The notes beneath the pieces are model-generated. The model worked only from the letters and a program-made list of their open reading frames with translations. It had not been told where the DNA came from and did not search any database. From positions 4,208 through 68,207 of the forward strand of contig CAYNYL010000006.1 in NCBI GenBank assembly GCA_964401485.1: 64,000 bases of DNA, written 5' to 3'. The stretch comes from an uncultured Gammaproteobacteria bacterium. GTDB lineage: Bacteria; Patescibacteriota; Patescibacteriia; UBA9934. The position numbers and the translations under genes were made by a program. This document shows, piece by piece, positions 12,536 to 41,181 of the stretch. How positions within the stretch are numbered: the first letter of the stretch is position 1; each line of letters starts with the position of its first letter.

Positions 12536-12536
12536 A

Positions 12537-13079: not shown

Positions 13080-13080
13080 A

Positions 13081-14088: not shown

Positions 14089-14114
14089 AATAGGCTCACT
14101 TAACCGTCTTTTTC

Positions 14115-14519
14115 CTATTCGGTCAAGAGCCGAAGGACCTCGTCGAGCTCCTCCTTTGTTGGGGTTGTTTTAATAAAGGTTCGTGGCTGTCCGTCGTAGC
14201 GAGGCATGAAATGGAGGTGAGTGTGGAACACGTCTTGCCCTCCCGAGATTCCGTGGTTGAGACCGAGGTTGTAGCCAGTGGCACCAAGCGCCCTAAGGAC
14301 CTTCGGTGCGAGCCGGTGCGCGGTCGCCATAATCGCCTCAGCATCCTCGCTTGTGCCAAGACTCAAGGAGTCTGCGTGCACTTTCGGAATAATGAGGAAA
14401 TGCCCTCGCGTCACCGGCCCTATATCAAGAAAGGAAAATGTTTTTGAATCTTGATCGATAACACGGGAAGGAATCGTTCCGGAAATGATCTTGCAAAACA
14501 GACAGTCAGGATTTGTCAT
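14115..14519 (-). CDS. HIT-family (histidine triad) nucleotide hydrolase
   Basis: CLFCKII... and HTHLHFMP (HxHxHxx) motif. Confidence 0.8.
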   Translation of the reverse strand: MTNPDCLFCKIISGTIPSRVIDQDSKTFSFLDIGPVTRGHFLIIPKVHADSLSLGTSEDAEAIMATAHRLAPKVLRALGATGYNLGLNHGISGGQDVFHTHLHFMPRYDGQPRTFIKTTPTKEELDEVLRLLTE

Positions 14520-14721
14520 AATATAGGGTTACTAGAAATAGAATAAGACAAGGGAGGCAAAGAACGTAAAGAGGCATTACGAACGAAACGAAGCCCGGCC
14601 GAATCGCCTCAAGCGCAACAAAGAACGGGATCGAGAGAAAAGAGATGAGAAAAGCAAAACGTAGCATATTAGAGTCCGAATGGAAGGCGGTCGCGAAGCG
14701 CCTTAAGGAGCGCGCGTCCAC
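14506..14721 (-). CDS. Possible small membrane protein (53-71 aa)
   Basis: ORF with two hydrophobic helices in the HIT-to-14669 gene gap. No homology recognised; it may be non-coding. Confidence 0.25.
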   Translation of the reverse strand: MDARSLRRFATAFHSDSNMLRFAFLISFLSIPFFVALEAIRPGFVSFVMPLYVLCLPCLILFLVTLYYDKS

Positions 14722-17640: not shown

Positions 17641-17643
17641 CTT

Positions 17644-19707: not shown

Positions 19708-20871
19708 CCGCGACACGTAGTTCGAGAGTCCGTAATCGGATACCGTTGATTTAATCACCTCTTGCGATTGATAGTACAAATCGCGCTTCTCCATTACGTT
19801 TCTTACCGCTCGGCAATAATCCGCCAAATTCCCCGGTTCAAACATTACGCCGTTTTTTGGCTCCTGTATTAGTTCTCCAACTCCGCCAATATCCGCAGCA
19901 ACAACCGGAACCCCAGCCTGTAAACTTTCGTAAATTACCGTCGGGGAATTTTCATAGCAAAGCGACGGGACAACAAGCGCGTCCGCGATACCAAAGCAAC
20001 TTATGAGTTGGTCGATCGCGATATACCCGAGGTACGTAATCCGCTTATCCGCCTTTGCGGCCGCCGAAACCTCAGCGGAAAGCGTTCCTTCTCCCGCGAT
20101 AATAAGCTCCACTTCCGGCGGAAGCTCCTTCATCGCTTCAAGAAGAAGTCGAATCCCTTTGTGATACTCGAGCTGCCCAACAAAGAGAAGACGGAAATGT
20201 CCCTCTGGCTTTCCGGTACGAAGCACTGCCTGAAACTCCGGCGCTGGATTTGGAAGCACCTCTACTTTTGAATGTTTAAAAAATCCGTGCTTAAGATATT
20301 CATCCTTAAGAAATTGTGAGGGGAAAATAACAAGGTCTGGTTGGCCAAGAAGCATCCGACACACAAATCGATAGACGCCATATACAGGCGCGAAGATGCG
20401 TGGCTTCTTCTCTTCTCCTGCAAAGAGGAGCCCGGACGGATAGATGAGTTGGAGGTCATGCACGACGTGAACATGGGCGAGGCGCAGTTTTCGAATCGCT
20501 CCCGGAATTCGAAGACCGATACCTTTGAGATTATGTGTCACAACTACATCTGGCTGTTCGCCAGAAAGAATTTCTTCTACGCGCCTTGCCGGATAAGGAG
20601 AAAACGCGTCTATGATATGCCAAAGCAACCGCTTCAGGACGGGTTGCTTATAGTCATCAAGCAAATAGTAGAGATTTTTTGGATAGAATCGATAGACTGG
20701 TTCGGCATTTCGAGACGTTTCAATTGCATCATTCGCGGTTTTTCGGCGCGTTGAAATAACAAACGCGTCATGACCTCGTTCGCTCAATCCCTCAACCGTC
20801 CGTACAACAACGTGCTCGGCGCCACCTCGGACATAGGGAGGATAAAGATTCGATATAAAGCCAATCTTCAT
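19654..20871 (-). CDS. Glycosyltransferase family 4 (GT-B fold). Likely start MKIGFISN at 20871.
   Basis: N-terminal YPPYVRGGAEHVV and C-terminal E-x7-E-like region (PSLCYENSPTVIYESLQAGVPVVAADIGG). Confidence 0.8.
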   Translation of the reverse strand: MKIGFISNLYPPYVRGGAEHVVVRTVEGLSERGHDAFVISTRRKTANDAIETSRNAEPVYRFYPKNLYYLLDDYKQPVLKRLLWHIIDAFSPYPARRVEEILSGEQPDVVVTHNLKGIGLRIPGAIRKLRLAHVHVVHDLQLIYPSGLLFAGEEKKPRIFAPVYGVYRFVCRMLLGQPDLVIFPSQFLKDEYLKHGFFKHSKVEVLPNPAPEFQAVLRTGKPEGHFRLLFVGQLEYHKGIRLLLEAMKELPPEVELIIAGEGTLSAEVSAAAKADKRITYLGYIAIDQLISCFGIADALVVPSLCYENSPTVIYESLQAGVPVVAADIGGVGELIQEPKNGVMFEPGNLADYCRAVRNVMEKRDLYYQSQEVIKSTVSDYGLSNYVSRLTDRFERILLARKEKHK

Positions 20872-21917
20872 ATAACCTCGTTGTAACATGATTCTAGCCG
20901 ATCGAACAGCACGGCCGGCGCATAGCGCTCGCGAGCTCTCACCGAAGCATTTCGGCCAAGGAGCGCAAGGCGATCGGGGCTTGCGAGGACCTCGTTAAGA
21001 AGAACGGCGAGCCGATCCGCATCCGAAGGCGGGGTAATAAACCCGGTAACACCGTGTTCAACGACCGTTCGCACTCCCGGGAGATCCGAAACAATCGAGG
21101 GCGTCCCGCTAAGCGCAGACTCAACCGTCACAATACCGAATGCTTCCGCCTTTGTCGTCGATGGAAGAAGGTGCACCCAGGCTCGCCGATAGGCTTTCGC
21201 TTTATCTTCGTCGGACAGCGCGCCGAGAAAACGAACGCGATCTTGAAGCCCGAGACGCTTCGCCAACGTCTCAAACACCCCTCGCAAATTTCCGTCCCCA
21301 ACAAGTTCAAGAACAACCCCAGGGGTTGAAACATGGACCAGGGCACGAAGGAGAATCGGAATCCCTTTAAAATAATGTGCGCTATCCATTCCCCCGACAA
21401 ATAACAGTGTTGGTTGGCTCGCACGTTCAAGCGCATTTGGAAAAAAGAGATGTTCATCCGCTCCAAACGGAAGCTCAATAACGGACGGGTGCACCACCCC
21501 TTGTGCCGAAAGATAATCCGCACTACTTACAAACAACCGTTTTGCGGTGCGCAAAATTGGCCCCTCGCCAAGAATCCGACTAAGCCAAAAAATCCATCCC
21601 TTTATTCCAGTCCCGGTCGCGCGCATGTGAAACGTTGCAACAAGCGGGATTTTGAATAGTCGACAAGCAATCGCTGTAAACACCTGTGCCCCGTAAAACG
21701 GATAGTGAAGATGAACAAGGTCAAATGACCGCAATCGCCAAAGGAGACTAAAAAATAGTCGCGCGTTTCCAAAACGAAGCGCCACCCGATCGCTTCCCGA
21801 ATGAAAAACAACAACTTCGTGCCCACGGGCGCGTAGTGCCTCCGTGTAATCCTTTGCGACCTGACCAATTCCTCCTCGCTCCGGCGGATAGACGCAAACA
21901 ACCTGTGCGATTCTCAT
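20868..21917 (-). CDS. Glycosyltransferase family 1/4 (GT-B fold). Likely start MRIAQVV at 21917.
   Basis: VYPPERGGIGQVAKDY N-terminal motif; C-terminal LLPSTTKAEAFGIVTVESALSGTPSIVSDLPG. Confidence 0.8.
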   Translation of the reverse strand: MRIAQVVCVYPPERGGIGQVAKDYTEALRARGHEVVVFHSGSDRVALRFGNARLFFSLLWRLRSFDLVHLHYPFYGAQVFTAIACRLFKIPLVATFHMRATGTGIKGWIFWLSRILGEGPILRTAKRLFVSSADYLSAQGVVHPSVIELPFGADEHLFFPNALERASQPTLLFVGGMDSAHYFKGIPILLRALVHVSTPGVVLELVGDGNLRGVFETLAKRLGLQDRVRFLGALSDEDKAKAYRRAWVHLLPSTTKAEAFGIVTVESALSGTPSIVSDLPGVRTVVEHGVTGFITPPSDADRLAVLLNEVLASPDRLALLGRNASVRARERYAPAVLFDRLESCYNEVI

Positions 21918-21918
21918 A

Positions 21919-22995
21919 CTACCAACGAACAACGAATTGAATCCCCTTTGTTAAAAGCGTAAGTACTGGGTTCGCGAACCGTTCAACGATAAAACTCGAT
22001 TGCTCCTGCGCCTCGATGCGCCCCGAAAAAAGCGCGACAAGTTCGCGATCCGAAATCACACGAAGGCGCTTTGTGCGGGTGCGAATGGAAAAAATCAGCC
22101 GGTACGTACGAAGCCGAAGCCACTCACGCCAAGCCCAACGCTTCGCCGAAAACCACCCACCTTTTATCGCAAGAAGAGTCGTCGCCCCCTCGACCGCAAC
22201 CAAGATCGGTAAAACAAGAAGGAGCGTCAGGGGCTTCAAATATCCAAACAATACAACGTGGCGATAGAGCTCCATCCAAGCAAATTTTTTCGGGTTGCGC
22301 GTAAAGGCGTAGTCGTGGAGCGCCAGCGCCTTTGACGCGAGAACGTTACGATACCCCGCGATACGAAATCGGAGTCCCCACTCAAGGTCTTCGTGATACA
22401 TGAAGAACCGATCCTCGAGTAGACCCACCTCCTTAATCACGGAGGTCTTTACAAGAAGGGCCGCACCCGTCGCATACGTTACGTCCTCTACCTCTTCAAA
22501 CACTCTCTGCGAACGCTTCGTCCCATTATCACGCGCATACCCAAAACCAGCGATATGAACGATTCCCCCGCTCACGTTAATCACCTCAGGCGATTTCATA
22601 TGTAGTACGAGCGGTTGAACGCTCGCGATCTTCTCGTCCCCTTCCGCAACCGCCACCATTCGCTCAATCGTTTCAGGTTCTAAAACGAGGTCTCCGTTGT
22701 GAAGAAGAATGTACTCATACCCTCGCTCAATCGCCCAAGTGATCGCTAAATTATTCCCTCCCGAAAATCCGTGATTCTTTCCATCATCAAGAAGCACCAC
22801 TTCCGGTAAATCCTTCTTCGAGCGCGGAAGAAATTCCGTTTGAACGATCTCGCTCGCGTTTCCCGTCGATCCATTTGGAATACAAACAAATGTCAGAGCC
22901 TCTTTCGGGTAAGTTTGCGAAGCGATCCCATCCGCAACCATCCGCATGTACTCCTCGGCCCCATAACAAAGATAGAGGATGGCAACGCGCTTCAT
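21919..22995 (-). CDS. Glycosyltransferase family 2. Likely start MKRVAILY at 22995.
   Basis: VAILYLCYGAE...LLDDGKNHGFSGGNN and a DxD-like HNGDLVLEP motif; GT-A fold. Confidence 0.75.
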   Translation of the reverse strand: MKRVAILYLCYGAEEYMRMVADGIASQTYPKEALTFVCIPNGSTGNASEIVQTEFLPRSKKDLPEVVLLDDGKNHGFSGGNNLAITWAIERGYEYILLHNGDLVLEPETIERMVAVAEGDEKIASVQPLVLHMKSPEVINVSGGIVHIAGFGYARDNGTKRSQRVFEEVEDVTYATGAALLVKTSVIKEVGLLEDRFFMYHEDLEWGLRFRIAGYRNVLASKALALHDYAFTRNPKKFAWMELYRHVVLFGYLKPLTLLLVLPILVAVEGATTLLAIKGGWFSAKRWAWREWLRLRTYRLIFSIRTRTKRLRVISDRELVALFSGRIEAQEQSSFIVERFANPVLTLLTKGIQFVVRW

Positions 22996-22996
22996 A

Positions 22997-23329
22997 TTAT
23001 TCTGGACGCTTAGCATCACGAATTGCGATCTCGCGCGTTAAATTCGTAATCTCTTTTCGGAGACTCTCTTGCTTCACCATGATTCGATAATTTACGTAAA
23101 ACAACAAGACGAGCGCGAGGTAGACAAGGAGATCCGCTCCCCGTCCAACTCCAACAAATTTTGCAACAATATCCGTCGATTCCGGTGTAATCGCAACGGC
23201 AATGACAAGAAGCCAGCCGATGCTCCAAATCGTCATCCACCACTTGCTTACCCGCTCTGCACGGAATTGGCGATAACTATGAAAAAGCGCAAAGACTGCA
23301 AACGTAACAAGAAGAATTTGAAAAATCAT
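22997..23329 (-). CDS. DUF2304/GtrA-like small membrane protein, commonly paired with polyprenyl-phosphate glycosyltransferases
   Basis: 110 aa with three or four TM helices followed by a short basic cytoplasmic tail. It is sandwiched between the two GT2 genes with 4-nt overlaps. Confidence 0.55.
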   Translation of the reverse strand: MIFQILLVTFAVFALFHSYRQFRAERVSKWWMTIWSIGWLLVIAVAITPESTDIVAKFVGVGRGADLLVYLALVLLFYVNYRIMVKQESLRKEITNLTREIAIRDAKRPE

Positions 23330-24009
23330 AGTTCATCAAAAAATTTATCATGGAAAAAATCCGCAAGGATCTTAAAGCCACCCATGAATGACTGTCCTTT
23401 TTTTAGCGTCTCGTCGGTATATCGGATCGTCACCGGTCGCTCAACGTACCTCAAGCGTCCAACAACAATCTCGTCGAGGATTTCGGACGCATGAGCCATT
23501 CGGTCGAGCGTGATACGCAACTTTTCCGCCGTCTTTCTTGAGAGCGCGCGAAACCCGTTGTGCGTATCGGTAAGTCGAATCCCAGAAATCAACATCGTAA
23601 AAAGAAGGGCCGGCTTAAGGGTTAACCACTTACGAATAAATGGCATCGACGTTCCTCCGCGAAGAAAGCGAGAACCGAGCACAATATCCGCCTCTCCCTT
23701 CGCGATCGGATCCACAAGTCGCGCAATCTCGTCACCCCGCATCTGCCCATCCGCGTCAAAATGAACGATAATATCCGCGTCGAGGTGCCGAAGCGCATAG
23801 TCGGTCGCCGTTTGAAGCGCCGCCCCCTGACCTCGGTTGATCGGATGACGAAGAACGATCGCCCCCGTCGAAAGTGCAACGTCACCCGTTTCGTCAGACG
23901 AGCAATCGTCAACAACGACAACAAAATCGACAAATGCCTTTGCATCCAAAATCGCCTCCCGAACCCTTGTCCCCTCATTATACGCGGGAATGACAGCAAC
24001 GATTTTCAT
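23326..24009 (-). CDS. GT2 polyprenyl-phosphate sugar synthase (DPM1/GtrB/ArnC-like)
   Basis: MKIVAVIPAYNEGTRVREAI...VVVVDDCSSDET...HFDADGQ (DAD motif). Confidence 0.85.
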   Translation of the reverse strand: MKIVAVIPAYNEGTRVREAILDAKAFVDFVVVVDDCSSDETGDVALSTGAIVLRHPINRGQGAALQTATDYALRHLDADIIVHFDADGQMRGDEIARLVDPIAKGEADIVLGSRFLRGGTSMPFIRKWLTLKPALLFTMLISGIRLTDTHNGFRALSRKTAEKLRITLDRMAHASEILDEIVVGRLRYVERPVTIRYTDETLKKGQSFMGGFKILADFFHDKFFDEL

Positions 24010-24023
24010 AGAAAAACCGTAGC

Positions 24024-25025
24024 TTATTTCGGCTCCGTGGTCAATAATAGCTTGTTCGCACGGATATAATCGATCGTCTTCTTAAGCCCGTCATCCATCT
24101 TTATAAGCGGGGTCCAAGAAAGCGTCTCGCGCGCCTTCGAAATGTCGGCAACCCCCGTCTCGGGCGAAAACATCGGTTCCTCTTGGTAGCTGATCGTTGA
24201 GCTCGACTCCGTAAGCGCTACAATACGCTCGGCGAGCGCGCCAAGCGTCACCGGCGTATCCGATCCAAAGTTTACTGCCGAAGCGACACCATCCTCGCGC
24301 ATAAGCCGAATAAGCCCATTGATTAGGTCCGTAACATAGAGAAGCGAGGTCGTCGCGTCCTTCGAGCCCTTTACAATCACCGGTTCGTTACTTAACGCTT
24401 GAAGAATCATGTCTGGAATTTGGTGACCGTCAAAGACCGGCATACGGGGACCAAACGTACGGAAGATTCGAGCGATCGGCGCAACGATTCCGTAAAGATC
24501 CGCATAGGTTGCAAACATCGTTTCGGCAAACCGCTTCCCCTCGTCGTAACTCGCCCTCGCCGAGAGATGGTCAACAATCCCAAGATCATCTTCACGCAAA
24601 CGCCCATCGCCGTCTCCGTACACAACGGAACTCGAGCAAAGAAGAATCCGTGACTGATACTTCACCGCAACCTCAAGGAGATGATGCGTTCCGATAGAAT
24701 GAGATAGGAGCGACTCAAGACGGTGGTCCGGAAAATGCTCGATCGAGACGGGGGACGCGACGTGATAGATCTCCTGGATTCCATTATGTGCGATCTGAAA
24801 AGATTCAAGTTCAGGCTGTGTTTCTAGATCGAAGGGACGGTTAATATCCAACCGGAGAAACTGAAAATTCGGTTGACGAAGGAACGGATCAATATTGCGG
24901 ACATGTCCCGTTGTAAAATCATCAAGACAAATAACGCGATTCCCTTCGCGAAGGAGTGCCTCACAAAGGAATGACCCGATAAACCCCGCTCCACCGGCAA
25001 CGAGAACGATTTTTGATTGCTCCAT
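24024..25025 (-). CDS. NAD-dependent sugar-nucleotide epimerase/dehydratase, UDP-glucuronate decarboxylase (UXS)-like
   Basis: VLVAGGAGFIGSFLCEALLREGNRVICLDDFTTGHVRNI and YDEGKRFAE (YxxxK). Confidence 0.85.
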   Translation of the reverse strand: MEQSKIVLVAGGAGFIGSFLCEALLREGNRVICLDDFTTGHVRNIDPFLRQPNFQFLRLDINRPFDLETQPELESFQIAHNGIQEIYHVASPVSIEHFPDHRLESLLSHSIGTHHLLEVAVKYQSRILLCSSSVVYGDGDGRLREDDLGIVDHLSARASYDEGKRFAETMFATYADLYGIVAPIARIFRTFGPRMPVFDGHQIPDMILQALSNEPVIVKGSKDATTSLLYVTDLINGLIRLMREDGVASAVNFGSDTPVTLGALAERIVALTESSSTISYQEEPMFSPETGVADISKARETLSWTPLIKMDDGLKKTIDYIRANKLLLTTEPK

Positions 25026-25026
25026 A

Positions 25027-26562
25027 TTACTTAGCTAATGAAGTTCGTTTTTTCATAATGCTTTTATCGACCGCGATAGGGGACTCGATAACCGCGCCTT
25101 CTCCAAACTTTGAAAAGTGCGTCGGCTCGACGTCGATCACGTAGTCCGCCCAGTCCGAGCCATACATTGCGATCGCCACTTCCTCCGTCTTAATGTGCCG
25201 TAAGTAAGGCCGATACGGGTTTTCCGGATTCTGCATCACGGCGAAGACCGCCGGCACCGATTGAATCTTTACGAGCACAACACCATATTTTGGAAGCGCG
25301 ATTCCTCCAAGATCGATCGCTCCAAGTTCCGCATCGGTTACAACTTCGACCGGGGAAAAGTCATCTTCCCACGTAAAGTAACTCTGACTGTTGATAAAAA
25401 TGTAACGCTTTCCCTTTACGACTGCGTAGACAGCGCTTGATCCGGCCGTGCGAATATAACGAGCGTCTTCCCCCGCCTCCTCCGGCGTCACAAATGATTC
25501 GCCTGCGGTCAACGCCTTTGCGACATTAAGTCGCCCCGCACCAAGATGCGCTTTCTCGGGTTCGGTATCCGGAATTGCATCAACGCCAGCCTCAAGCGCA
25601 AGGCGAACTCCGGTCGGAGTCAGATTCGGATACTTCGCGAGAAGAAGTGCCGAGGCGCCAACAACCATCGGGGCGGCAACCGATGTTCCCTGCCAACCAT
25701 TGTCGTAGAAATCATCATATCCGTTCACCGCGTCTTGGTATGAAAGTCCAAAAATCGACACTCCCGGCGCAACAAGATCCGTGCACTCCGATCCATAATT
25801 TGAAAAATCTGCTCGTTCGTCGCGACGATCACTCGCCCCAACCCCGATAACGTAATCATCCTCCCCGCTTCGCAAACAGACCGGATAGACCGTTTTATCA
25901 TTCGCGTTCACATTCGCATTCCCCATCGCCGCCACTATCACAACGCCGCTATGAAATGCATACGCGATCGCATCATTCAAAATATCATCCGACTCGTATC
26001 CCGAGAAACTTAAATTGATAATATCCGCGCCATTTGCAACCGCGTAGTAAATCGCATTCGCGACATCGGTCGAAGAGCCGGCTCCCGCACTATTTAGTCC
26101 GCGAAGCGACATAAGCCTCACCCTCCAGGCGATACCCGATGTCCCAACACTATTATTCCCGAGTGCCCCAACAATCCCCGCAACCATCGTCCCGTGCGTC
26201 ATAGCGATCGGATCGAGCTCATCTTCGGTAACGTCTGGTGTTGGATCATTATCATCTGAAACGAAATCCCACCCATTACGGTCGTCGATAAATCCGTTTT
26301 GATCATTATCGATTCCATCGATCGGATCATCGTTCACCCAAATATTTCCCGCAAGATCCGGGTGGTCAAGATCAATTCCGCTATCGATAATCGCAACAAC
26401 TACGCTCGACGCGTCTGTTTGCGTATCCCAAGCGTCAAAAGCGCCAATCTGCTCCAAATACCACTGATCCGATACGTTCGGATCATTCGATTCGCGCGCT
26501 AAAACCGGAGCACTAATCGCAAACTGACCAAGCAACAAAAGAGACGCGACGAATTGCTTCAT
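25027..26562 (-). CDS. Secreted subtilisin-like serine peptidase (S8) with a C-terminal ~130-aa conserved domain shared with two neighbouring proteins
   Basis: Signal peptide MKQFVASLLLLGQFAISAPVLA. Catalytic triad motifs VAIIDSGIDLDHPDL (D), HGTMVAGIVGA (H) and GTSVAAPMVVGASALL (S). C-terminal domain SSAVYAVVKGKRYIF...VLVKIQSVPAVFAV...DWADYVIDVEP...MKKRTSLAK. Confidence 0.85.
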   Translation of the reverse strand: MKQFVASLLLLGQFAISAPVLARESNDPNVSDQWYLEQIGAFDAWDTQTDASSVVVAIIDSGIDLDHPDLAGNIWVNDDPIDGIDNDQNGFIDDRNGWDFVSDDNDPTPDVTEDELDPIAMTHGTMVAGIVGALGNNSVGTSGIAWRVRLMSLRGLNSAGAGSSTDVANAIYYAVANGADIINLSFSGYESDDILNDAIAYAFHSGVVIVAAMGNANVNANDKTVYPVCLRSGEDDYVIGVGASDRRDERADFSNYGSECTDLVAPGVSIFGLSYQDAVNGYDDFYDNGWQGTSVAAPMVVGASALLLAKYPNLTPTGVRLALEAGVDAIPDTEPEKAHLGAGRLNVAKALTAGESFVTPEEAGEDARYIRTAGSSAVYAVVKGKRYIFINSQSYFTWEDDFSPVEVVTDAELGAIDLGGIALPKYGVVLVKIQSVPAVFAVMQNPENPYRPYLRHIKTEEVAIAMYGSDWADYVIDVEPTHFSKFGEGAVIESPIAVDKSIMKKRTSLAK

Positions 26563-26583
26563 ACGCGCCCATTGTATCACGGT

Positions 26584-27273
26584 TTATCTCAGTCCACACG
26601 TGACCCGCGCCTGCTCAAGGTCGTTACGAAGGGCGGTTTTCAGCTCTTCTTCATCGGTAAGGCGAATCGCATTCTCAAAATAGTCGTACGCGGTATCGCA
26701 TGAGCCGTACTTCAGCTCCCACTCCGCCAAATAGTACATAAACGTTGGATTTTGACCCTCCGCCTGTACAGCGAGATCGAGCAACGCCTTAACGTCATCT
26801 TTACGCTCGCCGTTAGGCGCCTGTTCTTCGATAATCTGGATAAGACTGAGAACATATTGTTGTGAAACAAACATCGAAAGCACTTGACGATAGGCACTCT
26901 CAGCCGTTCGCAAATCACCACGAAGGCGCATTACTTCCGCATACTGCGCCCAAGCGACATAGCTCACAGGACTAAGCTCGAGGTAAGTCTCGTACGTTTC
27001 GGCCGCTGATTTCAAATCCCCAAGGAGCTCATAGTCATAGGCGAGAACGGTATAAAGATCCCAATCCACTTCCCCGACCGACTCTTGCGCCTCGATCGCG
27101 GAACGCGTGACCGCTACACGTTGCTCAACAAGATCGCGCATCTCGGGCGCGAGTTCGATCTCGCGTGTATCAATCAACCCCGTCTCTTCAGGCTTCTTAT
27201 CGCGTGGGAGAATCAAAACCACGAGCACAATAATGACAGCCGGAATAATCCAAAATAGACGTTTTACGTTCAT
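26584..27273 (-). CDS. Membrane-anchored TPR-repeat protein
   Basis: N-terminal TM (LFWIIPAVIIVLVVLIL) followed by several TPR-like helical repeats (YETYLELSP..., AEVMRLRGDLRTAESAYRQ...). Confidence 0.65.
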   Translation of the reverse strand: MNVKRLFWIIPAVIIVLVVLILPRDKKPEETGLIDTREIELAPEMRDLVEQRVAVTRSAIEAQESVGEVDWDLYTVLAYDYELLGDLKSAAETYETYLELSPVSYVAWAQYAEVMRLRGDLRTAESAYRQVLSMFVSQQYVLSLIQIIEEQAPNGERKDDVKALLDLAVQAEGQNPTFMYYLAEWELKYGSCDTAYDYFENAIRLTDEEELKTALRNDLEQARVTCGLR

Positions 27274-27300
27274 ATAGGCGCATCCTACCACGGCGAGCTA

Positions 27301-27336
27301 AAAAAACAAGAAAACCGAGAGGGCTACTCTCGGTTC
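27301..27336 (-). terminator. Rho-independent terminator downstream of the 27352-28920 gene
   Basis: Stem aaccgagag/ctctcggtt (9 bp, 5-nt loop), followed on the minus strand by TTCTTGTTTTTT. Confidence 0.75.
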
Positions 27337-27351
27337 TTGTTTGCTGTATTT

Positions 27352-28920
27352 CTATTTGAGTGATGTGCGCTTCTTCATCATCGTTCGATCGACCATGATG
27401 TCGGAGCTCGCCTCGATATCCTCACCTTGTCCAAAACGGTTGAAGAAGGTTGGCTCAATATCGATTACGTAGTCAGCCCAGTCGTTACCGTACATCGCCT
27501 TCGCGATGTTTTCCGTAAGAATGTGGCGGAGGACTGGGGTAATCCCGTCTTGTCCTTCCGTAAGAGCATAGACGTAAGGAACTGATTGAATCTTTACGAG
27601 AACAACACCAGCCTTTGGAAGCATCGATCCTTCAAGTGGGAATTTCGCAAGATCCTCGTCATTCAAGGTAACGACGTGATCGAAGGTGGAGTGCCAGGTA
27701 AAGTAGGTCTTTGCATCAAGGAACACTCTTCGTCCAAAATCGTTCGTGATATAGTAGACCGCTGACGAATTTCGCGACTTAACAACGTCACCCGGTTCAA
27801 TTCCACTAACAGGCGACTCGCCAACAACCTCTTCCTCATCTGGCATATCTTCATCGGTAACGACCGTGAATGTAGCAGAATCTGTTGCGAGTGTTGATGC
27901 GAGATCCGTGAGGGACGCGGTGATAGTGATTGAGTCTGCACCAATTGTCGAAGGAACATTCCAGGTGAATTCACCATCGTTTTTGGTATTTGTCGCAATC
28001 ATCTTTGTTACACCGTTTTCCGTGTAGGAAAGGCTTACATATTGCGCAGAACCCATCGTCGTCCACTCAAGCTCAATCGGTTGACCTGGAAATACTTCCG
28101 GCGAAACTCCCGCGATCAAATCAATCGCGTTGATTGGAGCTGGCTGCGTATCAAGCGAGGCGGCTGAGCAGGAGCTAACAATGAAGCTATAATCCGCGTA
28201 TGTCACCAAACTTATAACGGATCCAGCGTCAGCGTCAATCGTTGATTCATCAAGTGCGATTGTGTAGGTCGTTCCGCAAAGCATTGGCGACGAAGAGGCA
28301 AGCGTAACCGTTGTATCACCCGTTCCGCTCCATGTTTCGGTGAAGGTTCCTGGATCAGGGGTAATCGTGAATTCGGTATCTTCAACAAAGGAGGCATCCA
28401 TCGGCTCCGAGAAGTTGAAAACAAGTGAGGCGAATTTTGACGCGCCGCTTGAACCACTAGCCGGAGAGGTGCTCGTAATAACTGGCGCCGCAGCATCGGT
28501 CGCAGCTTGCGAGGCCTTTGCTGACATCGCCCCTTCAGTAAGGGTAACCGAACCGGCCGTGCCCGCGTTTGCGTAAGAAATAACAGGATTCGTCGCTCCT
28601 CCAGTCACGTTTGCGGTTGTCGTAACGGTAATATCAAGGTATTGATCGCTACCCGTGCAGGTAAGGGCTGTAACTGCCGTTACACCAATCGATCCAGCCG
28701 TGTTCACCGTCCAATCACCCGCTTCATACGTACACGCAGTCACATTCTCATCTCCACCCATATCCCATCGAATCGTCTCGACGGTTCCGTTCGTATTGTT
28801 GTCGCGATACGTTGCCAAGTTAATATCGTCTGCCGCAAGCGACTGTCCAGCAAAAAGGAAGAGGCTTGCAAAAAGTGCGAACGATGAAACGATCGCTCCT
28901 TTTACTACATAGTTTGTCAT
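27352..28920 (-). CDS. Secreted Thr/Ser-rich hypothetical protein carrying the same C-terminal conserved domain as the S8 peptidase. True start MTNYVV at 28920.
   Basis: Signal peptide SSFALFASLFLFAGQSLAA. C-terminal SSAVYYITNDFGRRVF...VLVKIQSVPYVYAL...DWADYVIDIEP...MKKRTSLK aligns residue by residue with the S8 C-terminus. Confidence 0.6.
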   Translation of the reverse strand: MTNYVVKGAIVSSFALFASLFLFAGQSLAADDINLATYRDNNTNGTVETIRWDMGGDENVTACTYEAGDWTVNTAGSIGVTAVTALTCTGSDQYLDITVTTTANVTGGATNPVISYANAGTAGSVTLTEGAMSAKASQAATDAAAPVITSTSPASGSSGASKFASLVFNFSEPMDASFVEDTEFTITPDPGTFTETWSGTGDTTVTLASSSPMLCGTTYTIALDESTIDADAGSVISLVTYADYSFIVSSCSAASLDTQPAPINAIDLIAGVSPEVFPGQPIELEWTTMGSAQYVSLSYTENGVTKMIATNTKNDGEFTWNVPSTIGADSITITASLTDLASTLATDSATFTVVTDEDMPDEEEVVGESPVSGIEPGDVVKSRNSSAVYYITNDFGRRVFLDAKTYFTWHSTFDHVVTLNDEDLAKFPLEGSMLPKAGVVLVKIQSVPYVYALTEGQDGITPVLRHILTENIAKAMYGNDWADYVIDIEPTFFNRFGQGEDIEASSDIMVDRTMMKKRTSLK

Positions 28921-29001
28921 AGGTTCACTCATAGAATTATGCGTTAATGATACTCTTAAGGCGCTATAAAATCGAGGCCACTTGTGGAAAACATCAAACA
29001 A

Positions 29002-29030
29002 AAACCCCGCGTTTCCGCGGGGTTTTTGCG
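29002..29030 (-). terminator. Rho-independent terminator downstream of the giant surface-protein gene
   Basis: ccccgcg-tttc-cgcgggg hairpin flanked by an A-run and a T-run (also bidirectional). Confidence 0.7.
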
Positions 29031-29063
29031 CTCATGCGCTAGGCGATGAACTTGAGGCGTTCA

Positions 29064-32000
29064 TTAGAAGATGAACGAACCTCCGGTGACTGGAAGACCT
29101 TCTACGAGGTAAGCGCCCCAGTACGAATCATCGTCCGTGCTGTCGGCCCATACACTCGCCTCTCCATCATCTTGCCAGAGCAAGCTTCCTGGAATGCGGT
29201 ACATATCGTCGTCTGTATTGCTCAACGATGCGTACGCTACTGGCGTTGTACCAGCGTATCCACGAATTACCGTCAACGTGTTGCTCGAAATTCCGATAAC
29301 GAGCATGCGTTCACTTGACGAAGGCGAAGCTCCACCGTCTGCATCGGTTTCATCGTAAGCGATGATATCACCAACAGAGTAGGCAGATCCACTGTCAACA
29401 GCGATCGTTGTATCCGTGATAGCGATCGCGGATTCATTCGTCGAGTTAGCAATTTCGATCATTGAGCTTACGATATAGTCTCCAGGGATCGAAACCTGCA
29501 AGATATCATCTTGCGTGGTCGAAGCTCCTACTGCGTTCATGTAGAGCACGTAGGTTGCCGTCGTTCCCTTCGGTACAACGATTTGATCCGTGGCACCGAG
29601 GGTCAATGTTACGAATCCAGCGTCAGCCGCCGTTGTCGTACAATCTGCACCCGTCGTTGCTTGAAGTTCCCAATCGCTGTCTGAACCCTCGATTGGATCT
29701 GAGAGGTTCGAGCTCTTGTAGAGCGTGAAGTCCGTTGTATCAAGTACGGTACCAACAGCTGCGTCGGTGTCGCATTGATTCCAGTTGCTTCCAGCATTGT
29801 CAGACGTCGAGAGTTTGAAAACCAACTCTTGAAGAACAACGTCCTCGTTTGCTGCTGCCGCTACGTTGAATCGAAGCGCTTCCATTACTGCAGGAACAGC
29901 ATTTCCCGATGGGGTTGAAGCTGAAACTGAGAATGTTGGAGCCGTTTCCTTAACCGTGAAACGTGCAGCCGTCGAAACAGCTGTTCCGCTGTCATCGTTA
30001 AGTGATTCACCAGATGAAGCTCCGATAGCCTTGAAGTTGTCATCGCCCGATGTGTCCATGAAAAGACCCATTGAGACGTACTCGTTCGAGGTTGCAGATC
30101 CTCCAGCTGTTCGGTCGGTTACTGGTACGTTTACCAATACCTTTACCTTTGCAGCGTTTTCAATCGTTACTGGGATTGAAAGACCTGTGAACTTCGCTTC
30201 GTATCCGCTTGTGAATCCACCCGTTACCGGCACTGTTGCGCCGGCAGCATTGGTGTACTCAAGGGTTACCAAGTTGATGTTGTTCGTGTAGGTCGAAGCA
30301 TCTGTTCCGGTAAGCATTCCAGCCGCTTCTTCAGAAACCGTCAACGTTTGAAGAGTGAAGTCTTCTTTCGCTGCCGTGAATCGGAATGTTGAAACGTGGT
30401 TGCTTGACATTCCCGTCAAGAGGAAGTCTGGCGTTGGGGTTGATGAATCAATTCCCATTGCAAGAGTTCCAACAGAGTCAACGGTAAGAACCTTTGAGAC
30501 AGATGCAGGGGTTGTTGCACCTCCGATGTCTGCTCCGGTTGGGGTAACCGTTGTTCCGTCCTCATCTTGTGCGGTCATGTCTGAATCCGCATCAAGCGTG
30601 AATCCGAAGTATCCAGAGTTCGTGGTTGATGGGTTTGCAAGGTTACACTTGAGATCAAGTTGTACGCTCGCTCCCGCTGCCACCTTCCAGCTGAATCCAT
30701 CGTACACGAGGTTTGCACCTGAGTTCGAAGGAGAGACTGGTCCATCGATCAATGTATCACCAACGTAGATCGAGCATGAGCTGATGTAGTCAGTAACCGT
30801 AACATCCCAGTCAGCATCAGCATCACTACTGTCGTCATCCACAGAGTTTCCTGCCGTGAACGTTCCAGAAGAGGCATCGTTTGAGTAAACGTCGATCGTA
30901 AGATCTGAAACCGTAACCTGACCAGCCTCTGAAGCAACAACGTTGTACGAGTTAACGAGAACGTTGCTTGAGTTTTGCACCGTTACTGGGTTCACTGGCG
31001 TTGAAGCGAGAGAAACCGTAAGTGATGCTGACTTCGCTGTTTGCGCTTGTCCCGTGATATCGCTCGAAGGAACGATATTTGAGGTTGAAAGCGCATCTCC
31101 TCGTCCGTCTTGTACGGTAAGTCCAGAGATATCTACCGCTGCTCCGAATTCTGTTCCGGATGTAACATCGTTGTCGATGTCCGCAAGTACTTGAAGTGTC
31201 ATCGTTTCTCCGGCCGCCATTTCAAAGTCATCCGTGAAATCGATGATTTGCGCAGCGTCTTCGGCGTCAAGAGTATCTCCGGTGATATCCGCTTCGTTTG
31301 TGTCATCATCCGTCGTCACATCAAGCTCAAGAGGTCCCATAACAACCGTTCCGGTTGCCTTGTCGACAATCTTGATGTCTGTAATGTTCGCCGTATCCGA
31401 AGCACCGATGAGTCCGGTGTTGTCTCCGGTGCCTCCACCGTCTTCATCTCCATCGAATGGATCATTATCGTCGTCGTCACCGAAAACGATAACGTCGAGG
31501 TCCTGGATCGTGAGACGTTGTGTCGCGCTTACCGTGAACTCAAGAAGAACTTGGTCTTGGCTGTTTGTTCGGATGTCCGAAGCGGTTGGACCCACAAAAG
31601 CGAGGTTCAAATCTCCGCCTTGGATTGTCGAGAACGAACAGTCGCTTGACGAACTAGCACAAGTGCCATTCGTCTCAGCTCCGCTCGAATCTCCTCCATC
31701 GTATCCACCTCGGTTGATCGTCATTCCGAAACCGTAGTCTCCACCAACGATAAGGAAGTCCGTATCGTTTTCTGTGTAAACTTCGACTGTGTCCGCAGCT
31801 TCTCCACCGATGTCAGCTGAAACTTTCAAGGTCTTTCCTTGTCCTTCCGTGATGGAAAGTGGGGATGCGAGCTTGAATGAAACGAGCTTGTCTCCGATGT
31901 AGGTTCCTGTGGCAAGAAGGGTCGTATCATTCCAGAGCTTGTAGTCTGTGTGATCCGCACCATTGTCAACCTTCAAGGTGACTTCTTGTACCGAAGCGTC

Positions 32001-33299
32001 TTCGGATGATGGGGTGAGTCGGAATTGTCCGATAACCGCATCATTTTGTCCGATCGTTGGGTTCGTCATTGTACCGTTTTTCGCGATAGTGACTGATCCA
32101 ACCGTAACGGTTCCGATTGTGTGGGTGTTTCCAGAAACTGGGAACGATCCACCAACCGATCCTCCGTTCGCGTCAACATCTGATGCTGAAGCGAGCGAGA
32201 ATTGTACTTGAGCTCCAACCGTTGAGCCCGAAGCAACCTCTGCACGAAGCGTAAGCGTTCGTGTTTCATTTGCCGCAAGGTCAAGGTCAAGGCTTCCGAA
32301 TGTTACCTTTCGTGTTGAAGCGTTTACTGAACGAGCTTCGGTCAATCGCATTTCTCCCTCGTAGAGGTAGACGTTTGAAAGATTTGAAGTTAATCCAAGC
32401 GCTCCCATGGTAAGTGTCAATTGATTGACTGTTGCCGCTTCTGAACCAGCCTTTACGTTGAAGCTGAAGAGCTTAACGCCGTTCGCCGACTTTGGAAGAG
32501 TCGAAGAAGCTGGGTTTGAAGATGCAGCCATAACCGTTACTGCTCCGGTTGAGGATGTTTCGTCGCAACCTGTTTGTGAGGCGTCAACGAGTCCGCAATC
32601 ACGTGCTGTAATATCTGAACCGGATGCAAGAGCTGAATCATCGATGTTCGCTCCATCAAGGAACCAACCATCGTTCATGTAGTTTGCAGTTCGGCCAGCG
32701 CTTGAAACCATGCGCTTTTCACCATCCCATGAGAGATAGTAGCTTCCTCCGTCCATGTACATCGCACCATCGAACGCCGTAGCGGTCATGAGCGAAGCAC
32801 CGACTGAGTAATCTTCGAAGAAGACGTCTGGAACATCGTCAATGTTTGTGTTCCAGTTGCTTCCCGCGAAATCTGTTGCAACGGTTTCTGTTTCAATCCA
32901 GTGGATGTTTCCATCGGTTGAAACAGCATAGGTCTTAGGAGCCGATTGGATTTTGATCCATCGTGATCCTGGGCGATAAACGACGTTTCCTCCGAGCGGG
33001 ATAGCCGCGAGAGATGAGTCGGAAATCGTTTGTACTCCGCTGAAGGTTGTTCTCCAGGTCTTGTACGTTTTTTCATTTGGGAAGATGTAGCGCTCGCCGT
33101 CGTATCCGTAGAAGTAGACGGTTGAAAGCGATGTTCCGCGGATCAAGTCTCCTGCCGCTGCAGCGCTCGCGTCTTGAGGCAAGCTCAATCCGGCAAGGCC
33201 GAGAGAAAGGATCGTTGCTCCAGCGACGATCGCTGTAAGAACGCGCTTCCCAACTGATGTTAGGGAGTTATCCATAAGTTTATAGTGTCCTTTTTTCAA
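29064..33299 (-). CDS. Giant (1411 aa) secreted surface protein: Thr/Ser/Gly/Asp-rich with Ig-like/DUF11-like repeats and an N-terminal copy of the ~130-aa shared domain
   Basis: Signal peptide with an Ala-rich cleavage region. N-terminal STVYFYGYDGERYIF...WIKIQSAPKTYAVS... aligns with the C-terminal domains of the two downstream proteins. Low-complexity beta-rich composition typical of adhesins and S-layer-associated proteins. Confidence 0.7.
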   Translation of the reverse strand: MKKGHYKLMDNSLTSVGKRVLTAIVAGATILSLGLAGLSLPQDASAAAAGDLIRGTSLSTVYFYGYDGERYIFPNEKTYKTWRTTFSGVQTISDSSLAAIPLGGNVVYRPGSRWIKIQSAPKTYAVSTDGNIHWIETETVATDFAGSNWNTNIDDVPDVFFEDYSVGASLMTATAFDGAMYMDGGSYYLSWDGEKRMVSSAGRTANYMNDGWFLDGANIDDSALASGSDITARDCGLVDASQTGCDETSSTGAVTVMAASSNPASSTLPKSANGVKLFSFNVKAGSEAATVNQLTLTMGALGLTSNLSNVYLYEGEMRLTEARSVNASTRKVTFGSLDLDLAANETRTLTLRAEVASGSTVGAQVQFSLASASDVDANGGSVGGSFPVSGNTHTIGTVTVGSVTIAKNGTMTNPTIGQNDAVIGQFRLTPSSEDASVQEVTLKVDNGADHTDYKLWNDTTLLATGTYIGDKLVSFKLASPLSITEGQGKTLKVSADIGGEAADTVEVYTENDTDFLIVGGDYGFGMTINRGGYDGGDSSGAETNGTCASSSSDCSFSTIQGGDLNLAFVGPTASDIRTNSQDQVLLEFTVSATQRLTIQDLDVIVFGDDDDNDPFDGDEDGGGTGDNTGLIGASDTANITDIKIVDKATGTVVMGPLELDVTTDDDTNEADITGDTLDAEDAAQIIDFTDDFEMAAGETMTLQVLADIDNDVTSGTEFGAAVDISGLTVQDGRGDALSTSNIVPSSDITGQAQTAKSASLTVSLASTPVNPVTVQNSSNVLVNSYNVVASEAGQVTVSDLTIDVYSNDASSGTFTAGNSVDDDSSDADADWDVTVTDYISSCSIYVGDTLIDGPVSPSNSGANLVYDGFSWKVAAGASVQLDLKCNLANPSTTNSGYFGFTLDADSDMTAQDEDGTTVTPTGADIGGATTPASVSKVLTVDSVGTLAMGIDSSTPTPDFLLTGMSSNHVSTFRFTAAKEDFTLQTLTVSEEAAGMLTGTDASTYTNNINLVTLEYTNAAGATVPVTGGFTSGYEAKFTGLSIPVTIENAAKVKVLVNVPVTDRTAGGSATSNEYVSMGLFMDTSGDDNFKAIGASSGESLNDDSGTAVSTAARFTVKETAPTFSVSASTPSGNAVPAVMEALRFNVAAAANEDVVLQELVFKLSTSDNAGSNWNQCDTDAAVGTVLDTTDFTLYKSSNLSDPIEGSDSDWELQATTGADCTTTAADAGFVTLTLGATDQIVVPKGTTATYVLYMNAVGASTTQDDILQVSIPGDYIVSSMIEIANSTNESAIAITDTTIAVDSGSAYSVGDIIAYDETDADGGASPSSSERMLVIGISSNTLTVIRGYAGTTPVAYASLSNTDDDMYRIPGSLLWQDDGEASVWADSTDDDSYWGAYLVEGLPVTGGSFIF

Positions 33300-33420: not shown

Positions 33421-34467
33421 TTACTCCACCACGGTCTCTGCATCTTCGGTCTCCGGTTCTTCCTGCGAGCTATTGGCGAAGATGATAGCATCTTCCGCCT
33501 CTGCAAGGAGAGCCTCGATTGTGAGTAAGTGCCCTTCCGCTGTCGCGAGGAGATCGAAGGCGGTTCGATAACTTGCCGTTGCGGCAAAGTCCATTGAGTC
33601 AAAGAGCGCAGTGGAAACAGAATTTACGTTGTATTCAAGTTCTCCGAGTTGCTCTTGCGTGACCGCTGGATTTTTCCCGGCAAGTGCGCGAATTCGATCG
33701 ATACGCGCGAGGTCAAATGTTTGGCGCTCCTTGATCGAAGTGAACCGGTTTTGGTAGGCCCGCTTTGCATTCTCCGTCGTCGTCACGTTTTCCTTGAGTT
33801 CTTCGTGCGCTTCGACAATGACCGCAACCGCCGTGTTTGAGGCGGACTCGGTCGCCGTCATCGCCTCCTTTCCTTCTGCCGTACCAACATTCACCTGGAT
33901 CTCCGACGAGAATGACTTCAGCTTCTCATCGACAGCGCTCGCGATCGTCGAGGCCTCACTCGTCTTTTCACTTCGCAGAATTTCGAGATCCGCCTGCGCC
34001 TGCGCGATCTGTGTCGAGAAACCTTTCATTGCGGTCTGTACCTTCGCTTTCGCCTCGTCGCTCTCCCCCGCTACCGCCGTCGCCTCGTCGAGTCGCCGTT
34101 TTGCGAACTCAGTATGAAGGATCGCCTTTTTCTCCCTCGAAGCAAGCCGGAGTTGCGCCCGCTCGGTTGCGAGCTTAACGCTATATAAGGAATCGCCCGG
34201 GAGCGAGCTCGACGCCCGAACCGTCGTTAAAGATCCTCCGAAGGCAATGACAAAAAACGCCACGACAACCGTTACCGGCATCGAGACAAATCCACGGAAA
34301 TAGAAACCCACCGTCGCAAAAACCGTTTCAAATTTAGAAACTTCTTTCTCTTCCCCGCCAATCGCCGAGAGGAGCATCGCTCGCGCTCGCGCCTTCTCAA
34401 CCAAAGAAACCGCTCCGAACTTCGGATCATCGCGACGGCTCTTCAATTGGTGAAGAAGGTCATTCAT
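33421..34467 (-). CDS. Putative anti-sigma factor: single-pass membrane protein with an extracytoplasmic coiled-coil/helical domain
   Basis: Start lies 1 nt after the ECF sigma stop. It has a cytoplasmic N-terminal segment, one TM (VTVVVAFFVIAFGGSLTTV) and a long helical C-terminal region. No family signature recognised. Confidence 0.45.
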   Translation of the reverse strand: MNDLLHQLKSRRDDPKFGAVSLVEKARARAMLLSAIGGEEKEVSKFETVFATVGFYFRGFVSMPVTVVVAFFVIAFGGSLTTVRASSSLPGDSLYSVKLATERAQLRLASREKKAILHTEFAKRRLDEATAVAGESDEAKAKVQTAMKGFSTQIAQAQADLEILRSEKTSEASTIASAVDEKLKSFSSEIQVNVGTAEGKEAMTATESASNTAVAVIVEAHEELKENVTTTENAKRAYQNRFTSIKERQTFDLARIDRIRALAGKNPAVTQEQLGELEYNVNSVSTALFDSMDFAATASYRTAFDLLATAEGHLLTIEALLAEAEDAIIFANSSQEEPETEDAETVVE

Positions 34468-34468: not shown

Positions 34469-34999
34469 TTAGACAGACTCTTTCAGCGCTTTTTTCGCGC
34501 GTGAGAGGAGAACCCTGACATTATTTGATGTTTTTTCTAGTGCCCCCGCGATTTCCTTAATCGACATCTGATCAAGGAACCGCATCACGAGAACTTCTCT
34601 ATACTCTTCTTTCAATTTTTTCATGGCCCGCAGGAGCTCATCGCTCTCTTCGTGGATCATGACCTGCTCGACAAGGACGTCGGCACCCGAAAGCATTTCA
34701 GCCGATTCGAGCCCATCCTCACGTCTCTTACTTTGTGCCCGATAGAAATCGGCAATCAAGTTCCTCGCGATCTTATAGAAGAGCGCACCAGCGTTCTCTA
34801 CCTGACTCGACGTCGTGAACTCCCAGCCGCGAAGAAAGACTTCGCTTGTGAGTTCGTCGACATCTTCTTTTTTCGCGAGCTTGAAAAGAAGGAAGCGTCG
34901 AATGCGCTCGTAGAACAAGTCGTACAGTTCCGCATATGCTTTCGCATCTTGGAAGCGGTACACACGAAAAAGAAGAAATCGTTGACGGCGCATTGACAT
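34469..34999 (-). CDS. ECF-type sigma-70 family RNA polymerase sigma factor
   Basis: Region 2 (DVDELTSEVFLRGWEF...FYKIARNLIADFYR) and region 4 HTH (LKEEYREVLVMRFLDQMSIKEIAGALEKTSNNVRVLLSRAKKALKE). Confidence 0.8.
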   Translation of the reverse strand: MSMRRQRFLLFRVYRFQDAKAYAELYDLFYERIRRFLLFKLAKKEDVDELTSEVFLRGWEFTTSSQVENAGALFYKIARNLIADFYRAQSKRREDGLESAEMLSGADVLVEQVMIHEESDELLRAMKKLKEEYREVLVMRFLDQMSIKEIAGALEKTSNNVRVLLSRAKKALKESV

Positions 35000-35413: not shown

Positions 35414-35414
35414 T

Positions 35415-37434: not shown

Positions 37435-37533
37435 TTCTAGCAGATTTAAGCCATTTTGTCAAAAAGAAATAGGGCCCGAAGCATTTCTGCTTCGAGCCCT
37501 CTTCACCCGCGTGTGTTCACGCGAGTGGACGAA

Positions 37534-40992: not shown

Positions 40993-41181
40993 GGTTCACC
41001 TCGTTGTGAATGACCAAACTTCAAGAATCGGGATTATTCCCGATCTTGCGCAAGGCGACAATTCCCTACGTAAGACAAGGAAAAATGAAGGAGCTTTTTA
41101 TCATAAAATCTAAAAAACGTCAACCGTTAGCGGAGAAAGAAGAAACCCCACCCCCGAGCGTTCTCGGAAGTGGGGTCAGTT

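Follow-up and report, generated by a model that had tools for sequence, protein, structure and literature searches.

In the SLH and CWB2 systems, the lattice protein has its anchor domain in common with further wall proteins, and this domain is co-distributed with the genes for the wall polymer (bioRxiv 2025.04.02.646754). Among phage lysins, PlyCB binds the polyrhamnose backbone of the streptococcal wall carbohydrate and loses binding upon the R66E substitution (bioRxiv 2021.03.19.436156), and the cell wall-binding domain (CBD) of the endolysin LysIME-EF1, a tetramer built of a four-stranded sheet and two helices, loses wall binding through R190E (PMC7098653). The repeats of EccB1, a protein of mycobacterial type VII secretion, have already been likened to PlyCB, without evidence of wall binding (PMC4769845). 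Here we analyze a stretch of 64,000 nucleotides (hereafter, the window) from contig CAYNYL010000006.1 of a Patescibacteriota genome, in which neighboring genes for an S8 (subtilisin-like) peptidase, a Thr/Ser-rich protein and a giant acidic protein, all predicted to be secreted, share a domain of ~140 aa that is a candidate module for non-covalent anchoring to the cell envelope.

An earlier note on this DNA, made from the sequence alone, had described a domain of ~130 aa common to three adjacent secreted proteins. This description holds: all peptides quoted there are present, and BLASTP aligned residues 360-515 of the S8 peptidase with 394-548 of the Thr/Ser-rich protein (50% identity over 160 aa, E 1e-41), while the similarity to the giant protein, at E-values of ~1e-18, is 34% for the S8 peptidase (aligned with aa 41-180; E 9e-18) and 35% for the Thr/Ser-rich protein (E 8e-19). 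These values place the similarity of the three copies far above chance. When the window was translated in all six frames, a hidden Markov model (HMM) built from the three copies detected no additional copy. With an HMM of the repeating unit described below, the domain extends over aa 49-172 of the giant protein, aa 403-530 plus a tail of the Thr/Ser-rich protein and aa 374-499 plus a tail of the S8 peptidase; a third, degenerate unit following the copy in the giant protein was considered and rejected as not significant with the same HMM.

Ahead of the C-terminal copies, a stretch with the pattern SPVTGE.E.I..V..GDYI is conserved (in the Thr/Ser-rich protein, GESPVSGIEPGDVV at about 27796-27840 of the window) and recurs in C-terminal-type members of the family (P0007, P0009, P0015, P0020, P0028, P0030, P0034 and P0040), so that the boundary of the C-terminal subclass may lie ~15 residues upstream of the modeled domain.

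No match to the domain was found in Pfam or NCBIfam at E<=1, and none of the three proteins matched the SLH, CW_binding_2, LysM, SH3b, PG_binding or choline-binding families of these databases at that threshold. A search of the PDB sequences with the three-copy profile returned only noise (galectin-10, E 0.18), and no description of the family was found in the literature on PlyCB-like, EccB-like or DUF5667 proteins. The domain family is also absent from PHROGs; its fold class and modular wall anchoring as such are already known. Thus, the claim that the domain falls outside known families stands with respect to Pfam and NCBIfam but not with respect to the fold, which is no orphan, as two EccB/PlyCB-like units in tandem make up the domain.

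The tandem organization is apparent from the comparison of the two halves of the domain family (hhalign probability 93.8%, E 1.7e-7, 56 columns, with P0090 excluded) and from single units of three sources (units of P0090 and the two kinds of half-domain), which align in register; sequence comparison thus identifies the domain as a pair of ~60-aa units. P0090 (locus L018, 6001-10272) is a protein of 1423 aa that contains 16 tandem ~61-aa units with alternating A and B forms. Its contig neighbors, a DUF2095 protein among others, are presumably archaeal, and therefore the basic unit appears to reach well beyond Patescibacteria. The generic P0090 unit matches phrog_9616, a family of unknown function, and, weakly (E 2e-3), a small hypothetical protein encoded after the minor tail gene of a Streptomyces phage. 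P0090 also carries a C-terminal HEWGH zinc-protease motif.

Structure prediction and comparison with known cell wall-binding folds, which the earlier note had proposed, yielded a confident model. The AlphaFold2 model of the Thr/Ser-rich copy (window 27355-27804, alignment of 61 sequences) has a mean predicted local distance difference test score (pLDDT) of 97.2 and a predicted template modeling score of 0.88, and consists of two consecutive beta-beta-beta-alpha-beta-alpha units, each fitting the PlyCB-type fold class in that ~60-70 aa form a four-stranded sheet with flanking helices. Residues Y17, R25, K71, W109 and D115, counted along this modeled segment of 150 aa, are invariant. The fold-match scores are 6.2 for EccB1 (3x3m), 4.8 for 3l9a, 4.8 for the LysIME-EF1 CBD (6ist, two chains), 4.2 for PlyCB (4f87) and 3.5 for the CBD of Lys170 (7d55), the latter named a cell wall-binding domain by the depositors of the structure. 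The top 11 Foldseek matches are all EccB1, EccB3 or EccB5 (E 0.012-0.075, probability up to 0.9). Within the predicted fold class, the one function put to the test is the binding of Gram-positive cell walls, shown for PlyCB and the LysIME-EF1 CBD.

The window domain nevertheless differs from each of these matches. It shows no detectable sequence similarity to PlyCB or to the CBDs of LysIME-EF1 and Lys170; the lysin domains are single units arranged in rings of 4 or 8 chains and belong to phage lysins, whereas the window domain comprises two units in one chain and belongs to cellular surface proteins. As for EccB (PF05108; 3x3m, 4kk7, 5cyu, 6sgy, 7nps), the function of the repeats is itself unproven; EccB sits with type VII secretion, whereas the window proteins lack the N-terminal membrane anchor and central domain of the EccB type, none of the three matches PF05108 (T7SS_ESX1_EccB) at E<=1, and a Pfam survey of most of the larger window open reading frames (ORFs) revealed no type VII secretion genes, such as those for EccC, EccD, MycP or WXG100. 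In sequence searches the unit profile reached EccB1 marginally (E 0.05), and P0090 scores 39.3 bits on PF05108 (cut-off 27), a value reached by summing weak repeats. The top PDB matches of the unit profile, namely Crov588 and designed and PQQ beta-propellers, were rejected as repeat-summing artefacts. Identification of the S8 peptidase as a mycosin was likewise discarded, since it scores 167.6 bits on the mycosin model, where the cut-off is 278.75, and lacks a type VII secretion context. In organization there is a close parallel with the SLH and CWB2 systems of Firmicutes S-layer and cell-wall proteins: there, as here, the large principal surface protein, a protease and further wall proteins carry one and the same module, which occurs N- or C-terminally, is swapped between orthologs, is clustered in the genome and is linked to the genes for a secondary wall polymer.

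The family is large. An exhaustive profile search of cluster representatives yielded 6,467 matches at E<=1e-3 and 3,179 at E<=1e-30, the top ones being mostly giant-type proteins of 1100-1550 aa, many of which end in LP(V)TGGT(I)xY/F-like sequences. A word-indexed profile search, in which every match was shorter than ~1.8 times the query length, perhaps because match length is capped, and the unit alignment as query gave short fragments only, recovered 82 short proteins, none with a Pfam annotation on the domain segment and, where the source was named, mostly from Patescibacteria, Ca. Uhrbacteria included. Genome and metagenome scans gave 11 and 283 encoded relatives, respectively, the sources being metagenomes of groundwater or sediment, Uhrbacteria, Komeilibacteria and 'Patescibacteria group'. 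Across these searches, the named sources are mostly Ca. Uhrbacteria, Komeilibacteria and Patescibacteria group, the exceptions being one fragment labeled Acidobacteriota and some generic 'uncultured Gammaproteobacteria' titles. The window copies had no match in PHROGs, in 50,697 phage genomes (tblastn) or in an IMG/VR scan.

Each of the three copies has relatives elsewhere that are as close as, or closer than, its paralogs in the window. For the S8 copy, identity is 88% with the ortholog in locus L003, then ~52% with P0003 and 51% with the Thr/Ser-rich copy; the copy of the giant protein is 66-76% identical to those in giant-type proteins of other genomes, and the S8 and Thr/Ser-rich copies rank only ~180th of 217 in closeness to it. 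By these identities the three copies are old paralogs, and a recent local duplication is rejected. The domain, then, neither belongs to an annotated family with another function nor is confined to three recent paralogs, the two findings that the earlier note had named as fatal to its proposal.

The same note had suggested that the domain can be placed at either end of a protein, and this is amply borne out. Among 226 fetched proteins, the domain is located at the N-terminus, directly after the signal peptide, in 178, at the C-terminus in 29 and at both ends in 11. A Pfam survey of 59 family members and 10 further ORFs revealed partners that are all extracytoplasmic: Big_5, Big_7, Big_1, fn3, Kre9_KNH, CopC, GH10, DUF3048, a chagasin-type inhibitor, beta-propellers, cupredoxin and S8. 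In the window, the DUF3048 protein (46130-47200, minus strand) lacks the domain, while in P0083 a DUF3048 core is flanked by N- and C-terminal copies; this contrast is a sign, from domain architecture, that the module has been added to and removed from similar surface proteins. Five proteins of ~260 aa (P0012, P0018, P0036, P0039 and P0045) combine an N-terminal domain with a plastocyanin-like cupredoxin. In ten loci (L028, L031, L032, L039, L042, L047, L049, L061, L076 and L084), an N-terminal-type protein of ~270 aa lies beside another of ~470 aa, the latter carrying Big_7 in L028, the one checked; if the ~270-aa ORFs are cupredoxin fusions too, with which they are equated by size alone, they would represent a wall-tethered blue-copper protein.

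The domain genes adjoin a polysaccharide-synthesis locus, as pointed out before, and this linkage is kept in many contigs. Between 2 and 4 domain ORFs lie in 23 of the 38 related loci that span 10 kb or more, and the recurring gene order is extracytoplasmic function (ECF) sigma factor, DUF5667, giant, TPR, (domain proteins), S8, epimerase, glycosyltransferase (GT) 2, DUF2304, GT2, GT4, GT4, a protein with 15 transmembrane (TM) segments and a PMT-like GT-C; it is found, whole or in part, in metagenomic contigs L003, L015, L019-L023, L038, L054, L069, L095 and L098. The syntenic S8 peptidase carries the domain in L019, L020, L021 and L054, whereas in L015, L022, L023, L038 and L069 it has a longer C-terminal region without it, and therefore the module appears to have been exchanged between orthologs. 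In the window, the genes for dTDP-rhamnose synthesis (RmlB, RmlC and RmlD) adjoin the GT2/DUF2304 block. GT2 and DUF2304 form a GacI/GacJ-type pair, which in streptococci provides a polyprenyl-phosphate sugar for decoration of polyrhamnose, the pathway being completed by the GT-C enzyme GacL (bioRxiv 180810). The window also encodes an alanine racemase and FtsW/RodA, so that peptidoglycan is expected to be made.

The S8 peptidase, the Thr/Ser-rich protein and the giant protein each have exactly one hydrophobic segment, which is N-terminal and in all three of the cleavable type only, and have neither a C-terminal TM helix nor an LPXTG motif; hence they are predicted to be secreted without an obvious membrane or covalent anchor. 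Taken together, the observations lead us to lean, with somewhat better than even confidence, toward the proposal that the domain is a non-covalent cell wall (envelope) anchoring module of Patescibacteria. Under this proposal, the three proteins would be exported through Sec, and the two units would then bind a wall glycopolymer and hold the proteins at the cell surface, with the module placed N-terminally on a giant protein with multiple immunoglobulin (Ig)-like domains and C-terminally on the protease and Ig-like proteins. The two units in each chain could supply the multivalency that the phage domains gain by ring formation. The candidate ligands are peptidoglycan or, with greater likelihood, a neutral rhamnose-containing wall polysaccharide that the adjacent Rml/GT2-DUF2304/GT4/GT-C locus may produce.

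Several points weigh against this proposal. The copies have an acidic pI of 4.3-4.95 (the family medians are 4.88 and 4.47) and a net charge of -6 to -8, which disfavors binding to anionic polymers, so that the ligand, if any, should be a neutral glycan; the idea of a basic anchor was rejected for the same reason, and the binding patch of the LysIME-EF1 CBD is basic, unlike the window domain. The fold scores are modest, and EccB, the best match, has no demonstrated wall binding (PMC4769845). No phage lysin carrying the domain was found in PHROGs, IMG/VR or the phage genomes, no peptidoglycan hydrolase occurs among the partner domains sampled, and the synteny sample is biased toward close relatives, the loci having been retrieved by patterns derived from the window copies. 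In sum, of the anchoring function put forward earlier, what survives is an unannotated, widespread and mobile domain of secreted proteins, with a conserved link to the glycan locus and a predicted fold class in which wall binding is the one tested function; the binding of a wall polymer is a prediction that the acidity of the domain renders less secure.

The acidic surface, in speaking against electrostatic binding to anionic wall polymers, lends some weight to an alternative that we consider rather unlikely overall, namely that the domain is a docking or oligomerization module, the units of which would associate among themselves, or dock onto the giant protein through its own copy, to form a surface complex or lattice, no wall polymer being bound. 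EccB, which provides the best structural matches, has an established structural role as a periplasmic scaffold of type VII secretion, the rings of PlyCB (octameric) and the LysIME-EF1 CBD (tetrameric) point to a fold prone to self-association, and the domain genes are co-located with the giant gene. However, the phage rings are themselves wall-binding devices, and loci without a giant gene also encode the domain, both in small stand-alone proteins and in combination with enzymes (the adjacent ~470-aa and ~270-aa pairs). Furthermore, docking would leave unexplained how the giant protein itself, which has no other anchor, is retained.

Many Patescibacteria live attached to host cells and are thought to be epibionts. 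The module could thus serve adhesion or targeting, by binding the wall glycans of a host bacterium and delivering the protease, the Ig-like proteins and the giant protein there. The characterized relatives in the fold class, the phage lysin CBDs, do recognize the wall of a target cell, and a protease, a GH10 glycosidase and adhesin-like Ig arrays are found among the partners. We regard this possibility as unlikely, given that the conserved association with glycan-synthesis genes of the same organism better suits a self ligand, that the cupredoxin and DUF3048 partners resemble housekeeping surface functions rather than attack factors, and that the copy in the giant protein is well conserved (see the identities above) compared to <=45% identity in the region downstream of it in the alignment with full-length orthologs, which is not what would be expected of a fast-evolving receptor-binding module.

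The tails of the two C-terminal copies, previously considered identical, are nearly so (IMKKRTSLAK in the S8 peptidase and MMKKRTSLK in the Thr/Ser-rich protein), differing by a one-residue indel; together they read D(K/R)x(I/M)MKKRTSL(A)K. Within the C-terminal subclass (VLVKIQS...WADYVID), 25 of the 26 copies have the motif M[KEQR][KT]R at a distance of 8-12 residues from the C-terminus; by this comparison, the tail is a family-wide motif of the subclass and not a sign of recent duplication. Proteins with copies at both ends finish with the variant NTMERELGI, and N-terminal copies have no tail. The tail is modeled as part of the fold (AlphaFold2 pLDDT ~96), and no hydrophobic segment precedes it; no sortase-type or other sorting signal (LPXTG, PEP-CTERM) was recognized. 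Under the anchoring proposal, this short conserved phi-M-K-(K/T)-R helix would finish the fold of the C-terminal form as a capping element rather than a sorting signal. That the MK(K/T)R tail is instead a sorting or processing signal, for the S8 peptidase or for some sorting enzyme, with the domain mainly its carrier, seems very improbable despite the constancy of the motif and the presence of S8 and TPR genes in the same conserved cluster, considering the lack of a preceding hydrophobic segment, in contrast to LPXTG or PEP-CTERM, the place of the tail within the modeled fold, its absence from or variation in the other placement classes and its presence in the S8 protease itself.

The giant protein (1411 aa; pI ~4.05; rich in T, S, A, D, G and V) has 58 homologs among the fetched proteins and no match in Pfam or, by sequence, in the PDB. 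The AlphaFold2 model of aa 241-1411 (pLDDT 83) is a string of ~nine beta-sandwich domains, for which Foldseek retrieved generic Ig-like arrays (hydin, mastigoneme, PrgB, alpha-2-macroglobulin, integrins), with an archaeal surface (S-) layer protein, from Haloferax, ranking 39th. For Patescibacteria, the presence of S-layer proteins has been predicted before (bioRxiv 2024.05.28.596244). The size, the pI, the anchor-like domain, the modeled sandwiches and a strong terminator of its own would fit an S-layer or fibril subunit, with an adhesin as the other candidate. A broader proposal takes the cluster as the S-layer or surface-coat cassette of the lineage. In this scheme, the giant protein would be the lattice or fibril subunit, and the two-unit domain the general wall anchor of the lineage, with a secondary wall polysaccharide of the rhamnose type, the product of the neighboring Rml/GT2-DUF2304/GT-C locus, as its ligand; the S8 and TPR proteins would process or assemble the coat, and the ECF sigma factor and the DUF5667 protein would regulate it; and one ancestral wall-binding unit would have given rise to both the EccB repeats and the PlyCB-type lysin CBDs. 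We regard this scheme as rather unlikely.

The features of the locus are listed in the table. Homologs of the ECF sigma factor and of the DUF5667 protein are encoded in 18 and 16, respectively, of the 38 related loci mentioned above, and in the loci that were mapped the DUF5667 gene precedes the giant gene; the DUF5667 protein is a candidate anti-sigma-like partner. The hydrophobic segment of the TPR protein is a candidate membrane anchor or signal peptide, and the position of its gene is kept in L015 and L019-L023. The S8 peptidase, with D/H/S triad motifs readable in the translation, is 517 aa long from a GTG codon and 511 aa in the gene call on identical Logan contigs, the ATG at 26562 (511 aa) being the likely true start; the window sequence itself recurs in Logan assemblies of SRR13355620/21. 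The Thr/Ser-rich protein has 549 aa from a TTG codon and 526 or 522 aa from ATG codons (the 526-aa gene call starts at ~28932); because the TTG overlaps with the terminator that follows the giant gene, we assign the start to one of the downstream ATG codons.

Table. Features of the surface-protein cluster and the linked glycan-synthesis genes (positions in the window)
Feature	Position	Strand	Basis and remarks
RmlD	11672-12757	-	Pfam; wall-glycan group 11672..19707
RmlC	12537-13223	-	Pfam
RmlB-like	13081-14088	-	Pfam
orf468	14669-16075	-	
PMT-like GT-C	16072-17640	-	Pfam, synteny
15-TM protein	17644-19707	+	TM count, synteny; in wall-glycan group 11672..19707
GT4	19654-20889	-	Pfam
GT4	20868-21932	-	Pfam
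GT2	21919-23019	-	Pfam
DUF2304/GacJ-family protein	22997-23329	-	Pfam
GT2	23326-24009	-	Pfam
NAD epimerase/dehydratase	24024-25025	-	Pfam; first of glycan-synthesis block 19654..25025, directly downstream of S8
S8 (subtilisin-like) peptidase, secreted	25027..26580	-	ORF/translation; Pfam Peptidase_S8 aa 59-329, E 1.7e-48
Shared domain, C-terminal copy in S8 peptidase	25030..25461	-	Unit 1 25303-25461, unit 2 25084-25284, tail MKKRTSLAK 25030-25056
Small TPR protein	26584..27291	-	Pfam TPR families; one N-terminal hydrophobic segment; between surface-protein genes
Intrinsic-terminator-like hairpin	27311..27337	-	11-bp stem and T run; after Thr/Ser-rich protein gene
Thr/Ser-rich protein, secreted	27352..29001	-	Big_5 Ig-like domain aa 169-273 (Pfam); C-terminal shared domain
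Shared domain, C-terminal copy in Thr/Ser-rich protein	27355..27795	-	Unit 1 27613-27795, unit 2 27412-27612, tail MKKRTSLK 27355-27378
Strong intrinsic-terminator-like hairpin	28998..29029	-	14-bp stem, 8 G-C pairs, T run; directly 3' of giant gene
Giant secreted acidic protein	29064..33299	-	1411 aa (gene call, 1403 aa); all-beta string after signal peptide and N-terminal shared domain
Shared domain, N-terminal copy in giant protein	32784..33155	-	Unit 1 32970-33155, unit 2 32784-32972 (BLASTP, unit HMM)
DUF5667 protein	33421..34467	-	Pfam; one hydrophobic segment (TM); directly upstream of giant gene
ECF-type sigma-70 factor	34469..34999	-	Pfam; heads cluster

Divergent from the sigma factor gene that heads the cluster is a gene for a homolog of the MATCAP (microtubule-associated tyrosine carboxypeptidase) family (35129-36602, plus strand), with a 94-aa ORF before it. 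Farther on, an island of 60-67% GC (37456-43806) in the window of ~50% GC holds two large minus-strand genes (37534-40992 and 41182-43806) with 14 and 10 Cu-binding_MopE 'putative metal-binding motif' repeats, respectively, and a long shadow ORF on the opposite strand. A 548-aa ORF at 5190-6836 (plus strand) is an unusual fusion of a LexA DNA-binding domain, a Peptidase_S24 autocleavage domain and a complete C-5 cytosine DNA methylase.

Patescibacteria represent a large share of bacterial diversity, almost all of it uncultured, and their cell envelope is poorly understood. If the anchoring proposal is correct, the domain would provide a sequence handle on the surface proteome of these bacteria, namely proteases, Ig-like adhesins, cupredoxins and glycosidases, across thousands of secreted proteins. 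It would also draw attention to the giant protein, which is conserved and probably the chief component of the surface, point to the wall glycan of the linked gene block as the ligand, and tie cellular surface proteins structurally to the binding domains of phage lysins and to EccB of type VII secretion. Should the coat-cassette scheme hold as well, it would support the long-suspected but unproven wall-binding role of EccB. In practice, the family would merit an entry in the domain databases. Module-based wall anchoring being well known, the conceptual gain is moderate, and the main value of the domain would lie in the annotation of Patescibacteria surface proteomes and in its bearing on the question of the EccB repeats.

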